DNA of 40,159 nt. It comes from Kayfunavirus MT1B1P3. Shown here in pieces: positions 845 through 24,825 of the stretch (position 1 is the stretch's first letter; every line of letters starts with the position of its first letter). The DNA lies in sequence record OZ035815.1. One strand, given 5' to 3'. A program made the position numbers and the translations under genes. The notes beneath the pieces were generated by a model. The model saw only the letters and a program-made list of their open reading frames with translations. It was not told the DNA's origin and searched no databases.

Positions 845-2604
845 GTAAAGATTTAGTGGCGCGTCAGGCGCTAATGACTGCCCGTATGAAGGCAGACTTC
901 GTGTTCTTCCTGTTCGTCCTGTGGAAAGCCCTGTCACTACCAGTCCCGACTCGCTGTCAGATTGACATGGCGAAGAAACTATCGGCTGGGGACAACAGGC
1001 GTTTCATCCTACAGGCGTTCCGTGGTATCGGGAAGTCATTCATAACGTGCGCATTCGTGGTATGGAAACTGTGGAACAACCCAGACTTGAAGTTCATGAT
1101 TGTGTCGGCCTCAAAGGAACGAGCAGATGCGAACTCCATATTCATCAAGCGAATCATCGACCTCATGCCTCAGCTTCAGGAACTTAAACCTAAGCAGGGG
1201 CAGCGAGATGCTGTTATCAGCTTCGACGTTGGACCAGCCAAGCCAGATCACTCACCTTCGGTTAAGTCCGTTGGTATCACTGGTCAGTTGACTGGTAGTC
1301 GTGCTGACATCCTGATTGCCGATGACGTGGAGGTTCCGAACAACTCAGCGACTCAGGCTGCACGAGACCGTCTGTCAGAGCTTGTGAAAGAGTTCGACGC
1401 TATCCTGAAGCCGGGAGGTACAATCATCTATCTGGGTACTCCTCAGAACGAGATGACCTTGTATCGTGAGCTGGAAGGTCGTGGATATACCACTACCATC
1501 TGGCCCGCTCGCTACCCACGCGATAAGAAGGACTGGCAGTCTTACGGAGACCGTCTGGCTCCTATGCTTCAGGCAGAGCTTGAAGAGGACCCTGAGTCCT
1601 TCTACTGGCGTCCTACCGATGAAGTACGATTCGATGATACGGACCTGAAGGAACGTGAGCTGTCCTATGGTAAAGCTGGCTTCGCTCTACAATTCATGCT
1701 TAACCCTAACCTGAGTGATGCCGAGAAGTACCCTCTGAAGCTCCGTGACCTTATCGTAGCAGACTTGGACCCAGCGTCTAGCCCAATGGTCTACCAATGG
1801 CTTCCTAACCCTCAGAACAAGCGTGAGGACGTTCCTAACGTTGGACTCATGGGTGACTCATACCACACGTATCAGACTGTAGGTTCTGCCTTCAGTTCGT
1901 ACACCCAGAAGATTCTGGTCATTGACCCTAGTGGTCGTGGTAAGGATGAAACAGGTTATGCGGTACTGTACCAGCTAAACGGCTACATCTTCGCTATGGA
2001 AGTTGGCGGTATGCGAGGTGGCTATGAAGACTCTACGCTGGAAGCCTTGGCTAAGATTGGTCGTAAGTGGAAGGTAAACGAATACGTCATTGAGGGTAAC
2101 TTCGGTGATGGTATGTACCTTGAGCTATTCAAGCCTGTAGCTTCCCGTATTCATCCTGCTGCTGTAACTGAAGTGAAGAGTAAGGGTCAGAAGGAACTAC
2201 GCATCTGTGACGTTCTGGAGCCTATCATGGGGTCTCACCGACTTATCGTCAACGCTGCTGCTATCGTCCAAGATTACCAGTCTGCCTCTGATAAGGATGG
2301 TGTTCGTAACCCTATCTATTCTCTCTTCTACCAGATGACACGTATCTCTCGTGAACGTGGAGCATTGGCACACGATGACCGACTTGATGCGCTGGCTATC
2401 GGTGTACAGTTCTTCGTTGAGTCTATGGCGAAGGATGCCAACAAAGGCGAACGTGAAGTCACTGAGGAGTGGCTGGAGGAACAGATGGAGAACCCACGGA
2501 AAGGCTTCGAGTCCATCCACACGGAGTTCTGGGACAATGGGGTCCGGGTAACTCACGATACGGACGACGAGCTGGGACTAGGGTCCTACGTTACGTTCCA
2601 CTAG
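841..2604 (+). CDS. 19: terminase large subunit (T7 gp19-like)
   Basis: 587-aa ORF; strong recalled similarity to T7 gp19 ([83 protein letters not shown]); TTG start at 841 has SD aaggagg 7 nt upstream; alternative ATG at 874. Confidence 0.95.
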
Positions 2605-2700
2605 CTGAATGAATAACTATAGGCGAAAACTGAATTAATAAGCAGTTAGTAACCTATAGTTACTACCAGTCTAACCTACTGTTTTACAAGGAGTTTGGAC

Positions 2701-2721
2701 TTAACTATCACTATAGGGAAG
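2701..2721 (+). promoter_or_regulatory. phage RNAP promoter (phiOR-like, after gene 19)
   Basis: ttaactatcactatagggaag matches the in-window promoter consensus; same position as T7 phiOR. Confidence 0.6.
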
Positions 2722-2901
2722 ACCCCCGGTTACTTATAGTATTACTGTAGTGAATATACATATGCAGACTTTATGCAAGACCTTAGGAGGCAGACTCCGA
2801 GTTCTTACCTAAGGCTTGCACCGATGGAAGGAGGGTGATATTAATCATAATCCCTCCAATACAGATAGTCACCGACCATAGATACAGGAGGTATGTAGCA
2901 T

Positions 2902-3060
2902 ATGGCAAAGACCAAAGCTGTACTTAAAGCTCTGGCGACCAATCGAGCTACATACAGGTTTCTTGCTGCTGTTCTACTTGCTGCTGGCGTTACTGCTGGA
3001 AGTCAGTGGGTCGGGTGGGTCGAGACTCTCGTATGTTCTCTGGTGTCTCAGTGTAATTAA
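2902..3060 (+). CDS. 19.5: small protein gp19.5-like
   Basis: 52-aa ORF translated by hand (MAKTKAVLKALATNRATYRFLAAVLLAAGVTAGSQWVGWVETLVCSLVSQCN); SD ggagg upstream; position and TYRFL motif resemble T7 gp19.5; below the ORF-track size cutoff. Confidence 0.55.
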   Translation: MAKTKAVLKALATNRATYRFLAAVLLAAGVTAGSQWVGWVETLVCSLVSQCN

Positions 3061-3093
3061 CGCAATCATGGTAACGATTCATGAGCGGAAGAC

Positions 3094-3136
3094 CTAAGGT
3101 CAGTACGTGGATAAAGACCCACTCTACTGACCTTAG
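3094..3136. repeat. perfect 12-bp inverted repeat (ctaaggtcagta / tactgaccttag) with 19-nt loop
   Basis: direct reading of sequence; lies between gene 19.5 and the inferred genome right end. Confidence 0.6.
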
Positions 3137-3299
3137 CTACTGTAGTCAAGGACTTTAGGTAACACCTTAAGAGAAGCTCACTTAGGGTCATCCTACTTAT
3201 TGGTCTATCCTAGTGTCGCCTGACCTACGGTCCTTGACCTACAGTGGCTGTGGCCTACAGTAGTGACGATGAGTTTTGGACCAAAAGTTTGAGACCACA

Positions 3300-3535
3300 T
3301 CTCACAGTTCAAGAACCTCAAGTCTCCCCATAGGCCCTCTTTAAGTCCAGACCAAAGGCCCTACCCGTTACTACTCCTTGCAGTCACAGCCAGTCTGTCA
3401 TAAGGTTGGACCGATGGTCAGGACTTCAGGTCAACGATAGGTCTAGGCTATGGCTTATGGAAGGACGATAGGTAGAGGCTATAGGTCTTCTTTGAGTCTC
3501 TATCTGTATAGTGTTATAGTATAACATTACGTCCT
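3300..3535. other. inferred physical genome left end and collapsed terminal repeat
   Basis: tctcacagttcaagaacctcaagtctccccatagg at 3300 resembles the recalled T7 left-end sequence (TCTCACAGTGTACGGACCTAAAGTTCCCCCATAGG); flanked by cctacag-type short repeats on both sides, as in the T7 concatemer junction; exact boundaries not determinable. Confidence 0.4.
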
Positions 3536-3538
3536 ACA

Positions 3539-3662
3539 CCTACAGTCTCACTAACCTACAGTCTCACTAACCTACAGTCTCACTAACCTACAGTCTCACT
3601 AACCTACAGTCTCACTAACCTACAGTCTCACTAACCTACAGTCTCACTAACCTACAGTCTCA
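3539..3662. repeat. tandem array of a 16-bp unit (cctacagtctcactaa), 7 full copies plus one partial
   Basis: counted directly: units at 3539, 3555, 3571, 3587, 3603, 3619, 3635 and a partial at 3651-3662; analogous in position to the T7 short-repeat array next to the terminal repeat. Confidence 0.9.
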
Positions 3663-3812
3663 ACCATAAGACACCAACACCTACAGTCATAGATCTACAG
3701 TTACTAGACACAGAGCTATAGACTTAAGGTCCAAGACATGTTAGTCAAAGACTATATCCTCTTACACCATGAGGCCGACGATAGCTTAATCAGTATTATT
3801 TCAAATTACCTA

Positions 3813-3841
3813 TTGACTATAGGTCAAGGATATGGCCTAAT
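3813..3841 (+). promoter_or_regulatory. candidate host sigma70 early promoter (A1-like)
   Basis: TTGACT -35, 17-bp spacer, cctaat -10; about 510 bp from inferred left end, like T7 A1. Confidence 0.3.
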
Positions 3842-3952
3842 AGCTTCCGTCAACACGACACGGCAACAACCGGATAGTGAAGACGCCGGTCCGGTCCGGT
3901 TAAGTAGTCAGCCTGTAAGACATACGAACAACAGGCAACCGACAGAAAGTAG

Positions 3953-3982
3953 TTGACAAGAAGTATATAATTAAAGTATTAT
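3953..3982 (+). promoter_or_regulatory. candidate host sigma70 early promoter (A2-like)
   Basis: TTGACA -35, 18-bp spacer, TATTAT -10. Confidence 0.4.
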
Positions 3983-4221
3983 GAATCTAAAGCAGTAAGA
4001 CGCCACCACGGAATTGGTAGCAGGTACACTCTAACCGCCTCACTAAGAGTAAATTGAGGGGCCGGGCTTCACCGAGTGAAGAAGGTCTGATTGTCGGATA
4101 CTAAGTTACTACCTATAGCGCGGTAACAGAGAACGTTGGGAACTACGCAATACCCCGAGTTGGACAGCCAACAATGCTCTTTAACAATCTGGATAAACTC
4201 TTAATGTACGCAGATAGCGAC

Positions 4222-4277
4222 TAACTACAGGGCCTTTGAGTCTACATCTGAAGGCCCTGACTGATAGTCACTAACTT
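4222..4277 (+). promoter_or_regulatory. putative early-mRNA processing hairpin (RNase III-like)
   Basis: inverted repeat agggcctt...aaggccct followed by ctgactgatagtcactaac, a motif repeated upstream of the next early genes. Confidence 0.3.
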
Positions 4278-4282
4278 AACGG

Positions 4283-4537
4283 ATGAACACTATGAAACAC
4301 TTAAGCACAATCACTAATCACAATGAAGTATTCGTGAACACTAAAGGTTATGCGTGGATTCAGCTTAAAGAGATGACAGGAGCGCGTCACCGTGTGGTAG
4401 TGCGCAAGGTCTCAAGCAAGCCGTTCAGCAACTACAGCATAGATACTGTGCGCATAGACAACGAGACCTACCTGATAGATTCGCAGATAACCGTGAGTCC
4501 TACAGCGGGCGTCTCAGCTCCTTATTTCGCTAACTGA
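4283..4537 (+). CDS. hypothetical early protein (basic, 84 aa)
   Basis: first ORF after the host-promoter region; no similarity recognised; T7 has no gene before 0.3. Confidence 0.45.
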   Translation: MNTMKHLSTITNHNEVFVNTKGYAWIQLKEMTGARHRVVVRKVSSKPFSNYSIDTVRIDNETYLIDSQITVSPTAGVSAPYFAN

Positions 4538-4610
4538 GAGTGATTAACTACAGGTCGTTAGACTTATAGCGGCCTGACTGATAGTCACTAACAACTGAGA
4601 GGATATAACT

Positions 4611-6488: not shown

Positions 6489-9170
6489 ATGAGCGTCATC
6501 TCTATTGATAAACACGACTTCTCTGATGTGTCGAACGCCATTGAGCCGTTTAACCTGCTGGCTGACCACTACGGGAAGGACCTTGCAGTCAAGCAGCTTC
6601 AGCTTGAGCATGAGGCATACACTGAAGGCGAGCGACGTTTCATCAAAAACCTTGAGCGACAGACTGAGCGCGGGGAACTGGCAGACAATCAGGTCGCCAA
6701 GCCTTTGATGCAGACTCTGGTTCCTAAGATTGCGCAAGCCGTCAGGGAGTGGTATGAAGGTCCAGACGGGAAGCTTTCAACCTCTCGTCCTAGCGTAGCG
6801 TTCACCATGTTAAGCACCGAAGAGAAGGCCGTCAAGGACCGCTCTCTGCGTATCCCTTGCGAGTCTGCTGCGGTCATCATACTGAAGGTCATACTCTCCA
6901 AGCTGGTAAAGCCTGAAGGGATACCGATTACACCGATGGCCTCCGCGATAGGTCGCACACTTGAGGACGAAATCCGCTTCGGTCGCATCCGTGACAAAGA
7001 GAAAGAGCACTTCAAGAAGGCGATAGCTGATAACCTGAATAAGCGGGCCGGGGCGTCCTACAAGAAAGCCTACATGCAAGCGGTCGAGACATCCATGCTG
7101 GAGCAAGGCCAACTGGAAGATGCGTGGGGAACTTGGAGTCCTACAGAGGCTGTCCACGTTGGCATCAAGATGCTTGAGATTGTCATCCAGTCAACACAAC
7201 TGGTCGAGCTTAAGCGGTACGGTGCTGGCAATGCAGCGGCTGACGTAGAGATGGTCCACCTGTCAGACTTCTGGGTCAAGAAGATGGCACAACGAGGATT
7301 CAGCCTTGCGGGTATAGCTCCAGTCTACCAGCCTTGCGTCGTTCCACCTAAGCCGTGGACTGGTGTCGTAGGTGGTGGGTACTGGGCCAAAGGTCGCAGA
7401 CCGCTACCCCTGATTCGCTTAGGGTCTAAATCAGCGGTGGCACGTTATGAAGACGTATACATGCCTGAAGTCTATGACGCTGTGAATATCATCCAGAATA
7501 CACCTTGGAAAGTGAACAAGAAGGTACTGGACGTGGTGAACATGGTCGAGAAGTTGAACAACACGCCTATTGATGACATCCCTCAGATGGAGCCACTGAA
7601 GCCTGAAGACTATGCGGGTGAGACTGAGGAGGAACTCAAGGCATGGAAGAAGGCTGCTGCTGGTATCTATCGCCGCGAGAAGGCCCGACAGTCGCGAAGA
7701 TTGTCACTGAGCTTTATCGTTAACCAAGCGAACAAGTTCTCTCAGTTCAAGGCCATCTGGTTCCCGTACAACATGGACTGGCGTGGGCGCGTCTACGCTG
7801 TTCCGATGTTCAACCCTCAGGGTAACGACATGCAGAAAGGTCTCCTTACTCTGGCAGTCGGTAAGCCTATTGGTGCTGACGGTTTCAAATGGCTGAAGGT
7901 CCATGGTGCAAACTGCGCGGGTGTTGATAAAGTCACCTTCGAGGAGCGCATCAAGTGGGTGGAAGACAACCACGACAACATTATGGCTGCTGCTAAGGCA
8001 CCGATGGATAGCATTGAGTGGTGGGGCAAGTTAGACTCTCCGTTCTGCTTCCTTGCGTTCTGCTTCGAGTATGCTGGTGTAATGCACCACGGATTGTCTT
8101 ACTCCTGCTCATTACCGATAGCGTTCGATGGGTCATGCTCAGGGATTCAGCACTTTAGCGCGATGCTTCGTGATCACATAGGTGGACATGCAGTAAACCT
8201 AACGCCTTCCGGTAAGGTCCAAGACATCTACCGAATCGTGTCCGACCGCATTGAGGAAGAGCTTAAAGTCCTGCTGGTTAACGGCACAGACAACGAGATG
8301 GTAACTCACGAGGACAAGAAAACTGGTGAGATTACCGAACGCCTCAAGCTGGGGACACGAGAGCTGGCCCGGCAGTGGCTGACTTACGGCATGTCACGCA
8401 AGGTCACTAAGCGTTCAGTAATGACTCTGGCCTATGGGTCGAAAGAGTACGGCTTCGCAGACCAAGTTTATGAGGACATCGTGATGCCGGCGATTGACTC
8501 AGGGTCTGGCGCTATGTTCACCGAACCAAGCCAAGCGTCCCGCTTCATGGCTAAGATGATTTGGGAAGCTGTGAGCGTGACCGTAGTTGCTGCGGTTGAC
8601 GCGATGAAGTGGCTTCAGGGTGCTGCCAAGCTGCTGGCTGCTGAAGTGAAGGACAAGAAGACTGGAGAAATACTGAAGCCTTGCCTTCCGGTACACTGGG
8701 TAACACCTGATGGTTTCCCGGTCTGGCAGGAATACCGCAAGAAGGATACCACTCGTCTGAATCTGATGTTCTTAGGGTCATTCAACCTTCAGCCTACGGT
8801 CAACAAAGGCACGAAGAAAGAGCTGGACAAGCACAAGCAGGAGTCAGGCATTAGCCCGAACTTCGTCCACTCACAAGATGGTAGCCACCTACGCAAGACT
8901 GTAGTCCACACGCACCGCAAGTATGGCGTGATGTCCTTCGCAGTGATTCACGATAGCTTCGGGACCATCCCGGCTGACGCTGAGTATCTGTTCCGTGGCG
9001 TCCGTGAGACGATGGTCGAGACCTACCGCGATAACGATGTGCTGCTTGACTTCTACGAGCAGTTTGAATACCAGCTTCACGAGAGCCAGCGCGACAAGTT
9101 GCCTGAGCTTCCGAAGAAAGGTAAACTGAATATCGAAGACATCTTGTCTTCAGACTTTGCATTCGCGTAA
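6489..9170 (+). CDS. 1: DNA-directed RNA polymerase, single-subunit (T7 gp1-like)
   Basis: 893-aa ORF; conserved T7 RNAP blocks recognised (TLAYGSKEYGF, PNFVHSQDGSHLRKTVV, VIHDSFGT, final FAFA); size matches T7 RNAP (883 aa). Confidence 0.97.
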   Translation: MSVISIDKHDFSDVSNAIEPFNLLADHYGKDLAVKQLQLEHEAYTEGERRFIKNLERQTERGELADNQVAKPLMQTLVPKIAQAVREWYEGPDGKLSTSRPSVAFTMLSTEEKAVKDRSLRIPCESAAVIILKVILSKLVKPEGIPITPMASAIGRTLEDEIRFGRIRDKEKEHFKKAIADNLNKRAGASYKKAYMQAVETSMLEQGQLEDAWGTWSPTEAVHVGIKMLEIVIQSTQLVELKRYGAGNAAADVEMVHLSDFWVKKMAQRGFSLAGIAPVYQPCVVPPKPWTGVVGGGYWAKGRRPLPLIRLGSKSAVARYEDVYMPEVYDAVNIIQNTPWKVNKKVLDVVNMVEKLNNTPIDDIPQMEPLKPEDYAGETEEELKAWKKAAAGIYRREKARQSRRLSLSFIVNQANKFSQFKAIWFPYNMDWRGRVYAVPMFNPQGNDMQKGLLTLAVGKPIGADGFKWLKVHGANCAGVDKVTFEERIKWVEDNHDNIMAAAKAPMDSIEWWGKLDSPFCFLAFCFEYAGVMHHGLSYSCSLPIAFDGSCSGIQHFSAMLRDHIGGHAVNLTPSGKVQDIYRIVSDRIEEELKVLLVNGTDNEMVTHEDKKTGEITERLKLGTRELARQWLTYGMSRKVTKRSVMTLAYGSKEYGFADQVYEDIVMPAIDSGSGAMFTEPSQASRFMAKMIWEAVSVTVVAAVDAMKWLQGAAKLLAAEVKDKKTGEILKPCLPVHWVTPDGFPVWQEYRKKDTTRLNLMFLGSFNLQPTVNKGTKKELDKHKQESGISPNFVHSQDGSHLRKTVVHTHRKYGVMSFAVIHDSFGTIPADAEYLFRGVRETMVETYRDNDVLLDFYEQFEYQLHESQRDKLPELPKKGKLNIEDILSSDFAFA

Positions 9171-12469: not shown

Positions 12470-12628
12470 ATGACCGAGGTTGAGAAGAAATACATCGTGG
12501 AGCTTGAGGGTCGAGTTCAGTCCTTCGAGGTTCCGGTGTACGCAAAGTCTCTTGAAGAGGCTACCCTGAAGTCCCAAGAGTATGAGGACGCTGGTTTTGT
12601 TGTCGGACGGATTCGTCCTGAGACCTAA
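12470..12628 (+). CDS. 2: inhibitor of host RNA polymerase (T7 gp2-like)
   Basis: [14 protein letters not shown]...GFVVGRIRP matches recalled T7 gp2 (SFEVPIYAETLDEA...GFEVTRVRP); ATG at 12470 has SD aaggag 9 nt upstream; ORF track extends to 12392 but without SD. Confidence 0.7.
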
Positions 12629-12645
12629 ACTATCACTGTAGGACA
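12624..12645 (+). promoter_or_regulatory. phage RNAP promoter variant (phi2.5-like)
   Basis: cctaaactatcactGtaggaca: one substitution at -3; gp2 stop codon is embedded in it. Confidence 0.45.
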
Positions 12646-13836: not shown

Positions 13837-14306
13837 TGACTCAGAAATATAGACTTAAGGTTAGTGGCTACGGGTGGCCTAAAGGCACTATCGTTACGAA
13901 ATGTGCGAAAGACCCTGCACCATCAAACGGACATACTCTGGTGGAATCCACTGAGCGTGGCACATACAAACACGGAGCAGCAGGTCATAACACTCAGCCT
14001 GATGGTATGTGGGGGGCGTGGGTTGTAAACGAAAATCTTGAGGAAATCGTAGAGGATAAACCTCAGGTCCTACCAGCCTCAAGCGTCCCTCCTGTCACCG
14101 TTAAACGTGAAGTCCTGACCATCAACAAGATTGGTGTAGGCCAGACGTTCATCGTCCACGGTAAGCCTGACGAAGTGTACGTGAAGATTAGCAACTCTCA
14201 CGTATTCAACCACAAGCGGCTACAGATGCACACGACTGACGCACAGCGCTTCCAGTCACATCTGAATCTTGTGGTAGTAGAACTGGTGGTGTACAATGGT
14301 AAGTAA
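13836..14306 (+). CDS. hypothetical protein (156 aa), accessory insertion between endonuclease I and lysozyme
   Basis: ATG at 13836 overlaps gp3 stop (tgATG) with SD aaggag upstream; no homolog recognised; T7 has no gene at this position. Confidence 0.5.
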   Translation: MTQKYRLKVSGYGWPKGTIVTKCAKDPAPSNGHTLVESTERGTYKHGAAGHNTQPDGMWGAWVVNENLEEIVEDKPQVLPASSVPPVTVKREVLTINKIGVGQTFIVHGKPDEVYVKISNSHVFNHKRLQMHTTDAQRFQSHLNLVVVELVVYNGK

Positions 14307-24701: not shown

Positions 24702-24723
24702 CTAAACTATCACTATAGGGAGA
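24702..24723 (+). promoter_or_regulatory. phage RNAP promoter (phi10-like, full consensus)
   Basis: ctaaactatcactatagggaga, identical to T7 consensus from -7 to +6 (CACTATAGGGAGA). Confidence 0.7.
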
Positions 24724-24825
24724 CCAAGAGATAGACTCAAGGTTTCCCTATTACTTCAGTCCATACGGATTGGGCATACAGTAAGTAATAAACTTTATCT
24801 TTCAATTGAATAGGAGAATTATCAT

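Follow-up and report, generated by a model that had tools for sequence, protein, structure and literature searches.

What does a T7-like phage gain, if anything, from a run of short units that stand next to its terminal repeat and are identical to the last base, and is that identity owed to function, to recent history or to the way the sequence was assembled? We know of no work that has settled what the short-repeat arrays next to the terminal repeat of T7 itself are for. The question is taken up here for the window, by which the whole analysed stretch of 40,159 nucleotides from Kayfunavirus MT1B1P3 (OZ035815.1) is meant.

The array and its neighbourhood

Tandem Repeats Finder describes 3538-3662 as a repeat of period 16 with 7.8 copies, 100% matches, no indels and a score of 250, and the longest exact period-16 run has the same limits (125 bp), the array unit cctacagtctcactaa beginning at 3539. 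The initial annotation had counted about 7.75 copies of a perfect 16-bp unit, which agrees with this result, 7.8 being the number of this particular assembly. Each analysis below refers to the 8-mer CCTACAGT as the core. The core occurs 19 times in the window, whereas 1.9 occurrences are expected from shuffled sequence (5 at most); 11 of the 19 copies fall in 3238-3687 on the + strand, where core density is ~20 per kb in 3100-3760 as against 0.9 per kb elsewhere. All 10 cores of 3539-3701 are on the + strand, and the pair that follows the array (CCTACAGTCAxAGACCTACAGTTA) is present in most relatives and usually conserved across the genus.

The array was said to be non-coding and not CRISPR-like, and both statements hold: stop codons interrupt all six frames, 3192-3737 is free of ORFs of at least 40 aa, and the units are joined head to tail with no spacers between them. 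The top strand is poor in G (8 G in 125 nt). A search of 2600-4600 against Rfam at a permissive threshold gave no family match, and 3502-3700, treated as RNA, has less structure than shuffled controls (z = +2.3), a weakness of folding that speaks for no structured RNA in this stretch. A promoter and terminator scan placed no such site within the array. The units were also considered as phage promoters and rejected, since a hand alignment to the family consensus matches only 2 of 10 positions in the specificity region (-17 to -8); the matches between unit and promoter are limited to TCACTA and to the start-region 8-mer in reverse (7/8). As a separate observation, CCTACAGT is one base away from CCTATAGT, the reverse complement of the phage-promoter start region ACTATAGG, as is the T7 core CCTAAAGT, and the promoter variant at 12620-12644 (CACTGTAGG) includes the exact reverse complement of CCTACAGT; this resemblance between core and promoter start may be a coincidence.

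Table 1. Features of the window that bear on the array (coordinates of the window).
Feature	Coordinates	Strand	Remarks
Terminase large subunit ORF, 587 aa	841-2604		
Phage RNA polymerase promoter	2695..2719	+	Downstream of the terminase gene; positional equivalent of T7 phiOR
Three cores CCTACGGT, CCTACAGT, CCTACAGT	3224..3261 (starts 3224, 3238, 3254)	+	Right-end side of the repeat
Direct terminal repeat, 202 bp	3300..3501	+	Single copy in the circularised assembly
ATCTGTA concatemer-junction motif	3502..3508	+	Directly after the repeat
Tandem array, 7.8 copies of CCTACAGTCTCACTAA, 8 CCTACAGT cores	3538..3662	+	Expanded block of the left-hand short-repeat array
Two isolated cores 3' of the array, CCTACAGT and TCTACAGT	3680-3687, 3694-3701	+	
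Early host-RNA-polymerase promoter region	3813..3982	+	Right limit of the non-coding end region
RNA polymerase	6489-9170		

The window is a circularly permuted version of MT496969 (Escherichia phage Mt1B1_P3; Kayfunavirus, K1F group). Once it is rotated to 3300 and three 16-bp units are removed, there are 0 mismatches over 40,111 unique bases, so that three extra units (7.8 vs 4.8 copies) are the sole difference genome-wide. As deposited, the window begins at the small-terminase gene and carries the terminal repeat once only. A counterpart of 3300-3501 is found at both ends of MT496969, which identifies this stretch as a direct terminal repeat of 202 bp, and at 3300 the genome has a left end (TCTCACAGTT...) that agrees with the conserved one of T7, which starts TCTCACAGTG. 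The array, described earlier as lying next to the terminal repeat, indeed starts 37 bp beyond it.

Shorter terminal repeats in K1F (179 bp), EcoDS1 (178 bp) and Penshu1 (179 bp) are followed immediately by ATCTGT, as is that of Mt1B1_P3. The junction of the window, T-ATCTGTA, agrees at 6 of 7 positions with the class II signal ATCTGTT, at which T7 RNA polymerase pauses or terminates; T7, T3 and SP6 have ATCTGTT at the corresponding position, and the records of EcoDS1 and PE3-1 annotate the motif as 'concatemeric junction'. For class II signals the 7-base motif ATCTGTT has been reported as strictly conserved and as preceded by A, C or T. A sigma-70-like site at 3492-3520 (TTGAGT-17-TATAGT, with TG before the second hexamer) reaches from the last bases of the repeat across the junction motif, and according to a 2026 preprint E. 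coli RNA polymerase uses the T7 junction signal, depending on the context, as an extended -10 promoter.

Two palindromes were noted in the same region. The first, TTTTGG-A-CCAAAA, is perfect, lies at 3274-3286, 14 bp before the repeat, and is present in all Kayfunavirus relatives read; it could be tied to the hairpin intermediate of T7 end duplication, which Chung and colleagues reportedly proposed in 1990. The second, TGTTATA-G-TATAACA (15 bp, 3512-3526), comes after the junction motif and ahead of the array in roughly half of the relatives: it is found in Mt1B1_P3, ASO2B, SD6, Zappy and SR04, with one change in Penshu1, vB_EcoP_F and phiYIO1-1, and its place is taken by ACCATAAG-type repeats in K1F, EcoDS1, PE3-1 and GA2A.

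Around the array lie the terminal repeat, promoters and early genes of the Ocr type. The phage promoter at 2695..2719 belongs to an 11-copy family with the consensus CTAAACTATCACTATAGGGA, and transcripts starting there are predicted to cross, in the rightward direction, first the terminal repeat and then the array. Beyond the array, a T7-A1-like TTGACT begins at 3813, and the promoter scan finds TTGACA-18-TATTAT at 3953-3982 (11/12 match); host promoters are annotated at homologous places in the records of EcoDS1, GA2A and ASO2B, and as A1-A3 in that of T7. These early host promoters are overlapped by a 72-aa ORF (3738-3956), whose counterpart in relatives, of conserved length (~71 aa), is annotated as a hypothetical protein and in two records as alpha,alpha-trehalase, an implausible label.

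Conservation of the core in T7-group phages and in Kayfunavirus

Its sequence and place identify the array as the form that the short-repeat arrays on either side of the terminal repeat of T7-group phages take in Kayfunavirus (K1F group). The analogy with the short repeats of T7, already drawn in the initial annotation, is well founded: T7 has about 10 CCTAAAG-type cores at ~170-345, just past its 160-bp repeat, and more of them before the right-hand repeat, arrays which we take to be the SRL and SRR of Dunn and Studier (1983). In both phages the array follows the repeat and the ATCTGT junction, precedes the early host promoters, keeps to the same strand, is non-coding and has a partner array on the far side of the repeat, and the cores themselves, CCTAAAGT in T7 and CCTACAGT in the window, are one base apart. 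Where the window has its three right-end cores, the right-hand array of T7 has CCTAAAG, CCTAAGG and CCTATAG cores; the position and sequence of the right-end cores are kept in all 8 Kayfunavirus loci that cover this side, with occasional single-base variants. The C[CT]TAAAG cores of T3 and the CCTTAGT cores of SP6 occupy the same place, in the same orientation, after ATCTGTT. The difference lies in regularity, since the T7 array is imperfect, with cores ~11-16 bp apart and mostly different spacers, whereas in the window a single core-plus-spacer unit is amplified to 7.8 identical copies. The type of array was already known from T7, and the window is distinguished by the amplification of one core-plus-spacer unit to identical copies.

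For the comparison within the genus, 18 Kayfunavirus genomes were examined over the region after the junction motif up to a conserved downstream block (CTATAGACTTAA). Every one of them has exact CCTACAGT cores in this region (4-10 per genome), and the number of opposite-strand cores is 0 throughout the 18 genomes. The distance from core to core is 14-16 bp in 67 of 88 spacings. Among 51 distinct contexts, the position preceding the core (-1) is A in 47 and the one following it (+8) is C in 42. Hence only A-CCTACAGT-C is kept among relatives, the remainder of the unit varying at a period of 14-16 bp: the spacer is TCTCACTAA in the window, TCCTACA(A) in ZG49 and vB_EcoP_F, TCTAACCAA in GA2A and TCTAACTA in 216Ecol046PP. 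The suggestion that the identity of the copies reflects a functional constraint does not survive this comparison, because the 18 relatives retain the core only and differ in period, spacer and number.

The window's own 16-bp unit is present in ~1.8 copies in K1F and one metagenome contig, 2.8 in SD6, SHAK9454 and PhiNW-B1, 3.8 in ASO2B (whose flanks are 99.6% identical to those of the window), 4.8 in GenBank Mt1B1_P3, 5.8 in Zappy, 6.8 in a metagenome contig, 7.8 in the window and ~9 in Salmonella phage KE14. The two metagenome contigs (1.8 and 6.8 copies) are those recovered by a scan of metagenome contigs for two adjacent units; the same scan of IMG/VR gave 0 contigs. A comparison of copy number across related genomes had been proposed at the outset, together with the view that numbers varying freely and without phenotype would speak against a function. 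The range of about 2 to 9 copies and the three-unit difference from MT496969 come near to such free variation.

A closely similar repeat has been described in the 2026 genome paper on the Kayfunavirus vB_EcoA-Sparklingdew: tandem units of 15 bp, AACCTACAGTCCTAC, on the 3' side of the terminal repeat (PMC13298934). It resembles the array of the window in genus, core (CCTACAGT) and position and in being perfect enough to disturb assembly and coverage, and differs from it in spacer (TCCTACA(A) vs TCTCACTAA) and period (15 vs 16); the paper treats it descriptively and proposes no function (PMC13298934). The same type of 15-bp unit is shared by ZG49 and vB_EcoP_F.

Other repeats were seen in this part of the genome. 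A second motif, ACCATA(A/G)G, occurs once in the window (3663-3671), immediately 3' of the array, and stands in tandem in PE3-1 (5 copies of CAACAACCATAGGTCT, locus ~737-820) and in EcoDS1 (3 copies of a 14-bp unit, ~260-305). In 216Ecol046PP (PP328844.1) a tandem duplication of ~100 bp at ~760-980 comprises two cores and the downstream conserved block and is either genuine or an assembly artefact. Finally, a dispersed repeat, GAC(A/T)CAGA..ATAGACTTAAGGT, has three copies in the window, one just after the core pair (3707-3730) and the other two (13838-13861 and 24720-24743) near phage promoters.

These comparisons lead us to favour, with moderate confidence, a K1F-group array of the T7 type in which the oriented core would be functional and act in cis, and in which the 125-bp block would be recently expanded and unstable. 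The alternatives bear on different parts of this reading, i.e. on the number of copies, on the function of the core and on the identity of the units.

Origins of the copy number and of the identical units

Recent expansion had been suggested from the identity of the copies and is corroborated by the three-unit difference from MT496969, a genome otherwise identical over 40,111 bp. The very same observation is also what one would expect if the array were real and its 7.8 copies had been set by the assembler, the differences among deposited genomes being largely technical. We rate this explanation as a substantial possibility, slightly short of an even chance. In de Bruijn graphs built from a longer artificial array with the flanks of the window, the shortest traversal measures 45, 61, 77, 109, 125 and 141 bp at k = 33, 55, 77, 99, 119 and 127, respectively. 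The array of GenBank Mt1B1_P3 measures 77 bp, exactly the collapsed length at k=77, and k=77 is the largest SPAdes default for 150-nt reads. Further matches to collapsed lengths are a metagenome contig (109 bp, k=99), ASO2B (61 bp, k=55), SD6, SHAK9454 and PhiNW-B1 (45 bp, k=33) and the window itself (125 bp, k=119), and k of 99 or below leaves a 125-bp run ambiguous. These coincidences are suggestive and are no test, as some range of k fits every copy number of the form n.8; moreover, the 5.8 copies of Zappy and the 7.8 copies of the window fit no SPAdes default k.

For the collection that includes MT1B1_P3, 2x150 Illumina reads were assembled by means of SPAdes and ambiguities resolved by hand, although 125 bp can be spanned by 150-nt reads at high coverage. 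The window presumably comes from this collection, since Kayfunavirus records numbered OZ0357xx-OZ0358xx begin at almost the same rotation. Experience with comparable loci points in the technical direction as well: spurious repeats near the terminal repeats of related phages have arisen from short-read assembly, and at the homologous repeat of Sparklingdew the assembly broke and local coverage fell 12.7-fold (PMC13298934). On the other hand, the older genomes of K1F and EcoDS1, as well as T7, have other spacers and other numbers, which makes real evolutionary variation certain. Complete E. coli genomes searched with 3300-3800 yielded nothing, so that no long-read copies are hidden in host assemblies. 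The gap between 7.8 and 4.8 copies may accordingly be technical, biological or both. In practical terms, short-read assemblies are easily misled by the array, and copy numbers deposited for T7-like phages are not comparable without long reads or PCR sizing.

A second alternative takes the variation at face value and denies the function: the block would be a neutral minisatellite, tolerated at a non-coding end that accepts insertions and deletions, and its core would have been kept by descent and re-amplification. We think this unlikely, and it is nevertheless a serious rival. The array shares with minisatellites, i.e. variable-number tandem repeats, its perfect head-to-tail units and copy numbers that form an unbroken series in the relatives, and copies differ between otherwise identical genomes, although part of that difference may be an assembly effect. 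The number ranges from ~2 to ~9 with no visible cost, the otherwise identical genome included; local repeats and spacers come and go, as the fivefold CAACAACCATAGGTCT of PE3-1 and the duplication in 216Ecol046PP illustrate; and the lack of promoter-like sites and RNA family matches in the array, together with a transcript less structured than its shuffles, would suit a functionless block. What a neutral minisatellite does not readily explain is the behaviour of the core. Non-tandem cores stand at fixed sites on both sides of the repeat throughout the genus, their orientation is invariant (0 reverse in 18 genomes), and the distant phages T7, T3 and SP6 retain arrays of related cores in place despite diverged surroundings. 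Unlike what is seen in minisatellites, the core of the unit is thus also kept beyond the tandem block and in other genera, so that the sequence of the unit is probably not arbitrary. Within tandem blocks, conservation of the core could in part be due to concerted evolution instead of selection.

Improbable in our view is a third possibility, in which the cores on both sides of the repeat would be docking sites of the maturation machinery (terminase, paused RNA polymerase or both) and the unstable block a tuning knob for the efficiency or timing of end formation and packaging. If it were true, there would be isogenic variants of Mt1B1_P3, with 4.8 and with 7.8 copies, unequal in burst or competitiveness. 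We hold it very improbable that identity and number are themselves selected, as they would be if binding required some eight 16-bp sites without any difference between them: eight identical and evenly spaced sites are indeed present, but close relatives with near-identical flanks have 2.8-5.8 copies, the otherwise identical genome has 4.8, and other members of the genus have units of 14, 15 or 16 bp with different spacers. The least credible readings can be dismissed briefly, as the 16-bp direct repeats are of the size of replication-origin iterons but have no initiator gene beside them, the terminal repeat and the early host promoters standing there instead, while a CRISPR is at odds with head-to-tail units that lack spacers and a coding repeat with stops in six of six frames. 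Replication in the T7 group initiates at RNA-polymerase promoters and not at iterons.

Proposed role of the core

Returning to the T7-type array with a functional core and an unstable block, the functional unit would be the 8-10 bp core A-CCTACAGT-C on a constant strand, with three sites at fixed positions on the left side of the concatemer junction and 4-10 on the right side. The 125-bp block would have arisen, recently and unstably, by replication slippage or by unequal recombination between direct repeats, its copy number being free of tight selection. The perfect identity of the units is best read as a product of such slippage or recombination, or of assembler behaviour, and not of selection for identical units: relatives keep the core only and an otherwise identical genome differs in the number of units, which argues against selection acting on the entire 16-mer.

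The cores would serve as cis-acting sites, and concatemer maturation or packaging is the process in which the conserved core probably has its part. The idea of a binding-site array for packaging or concatemer processing, put forward in the initial annotation, is therefore reasonable as far as the conserved core is concerned and fits neither the copy number nor the identity of the units. Since the cores stand on both sides of the repeat and of the putative RNA-polymerase pause motif, around the place of end formation, their reader would probably be a phage maturation protein, i.e. the terminase subunits gp18/gp19 or a paused RNA polymerase complex. In T7 packaging, recognition of PacB is ascribed to the small terminase gp18 and cleavage at PacC to gp19. 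By analogy, the P1 pac hexamers, the lambda cosB R sites, SPP1 pacL/pacR and T7/T3 PacB may be compared with the CCTACAGT cores as oriented short motifs that bracket an end-cutting site. The cores would be redundant, so that several sites could be gained or lost with little difference.

Some observations narrow what the core could do. T3 and T7 reportedly differ in packaging specificity, according to Tsuchida and colleagues in 1996, although they share the CCTAAAG core, so that the core is unlikely to be the determinant of specificity. In the plasmid-packaging assays of Chung and Hinkle (1990), T7 reportedly required little of the sequence on the right-hand side of the repeat. A period of 14-16 bp corresponds to a non-integral number of helical turns, which disfavours cooperative binding on the same face of the DNA. 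The open-access literature searched held no statement of a function for the short-repeat array of T7 (SRL/SRR), and a literature search with the motif strings returned unrelated primer lists only.

Taken together, the importance of the finding is modest. The Kayfunavirus data provide a clean core, A-CCTACAGT-C, for which orientation and two-sided placement are conserved and number and spacer are not, and they supply a natural copy-number variant in an otherwise identical genome that is useful for testing the role of the array.
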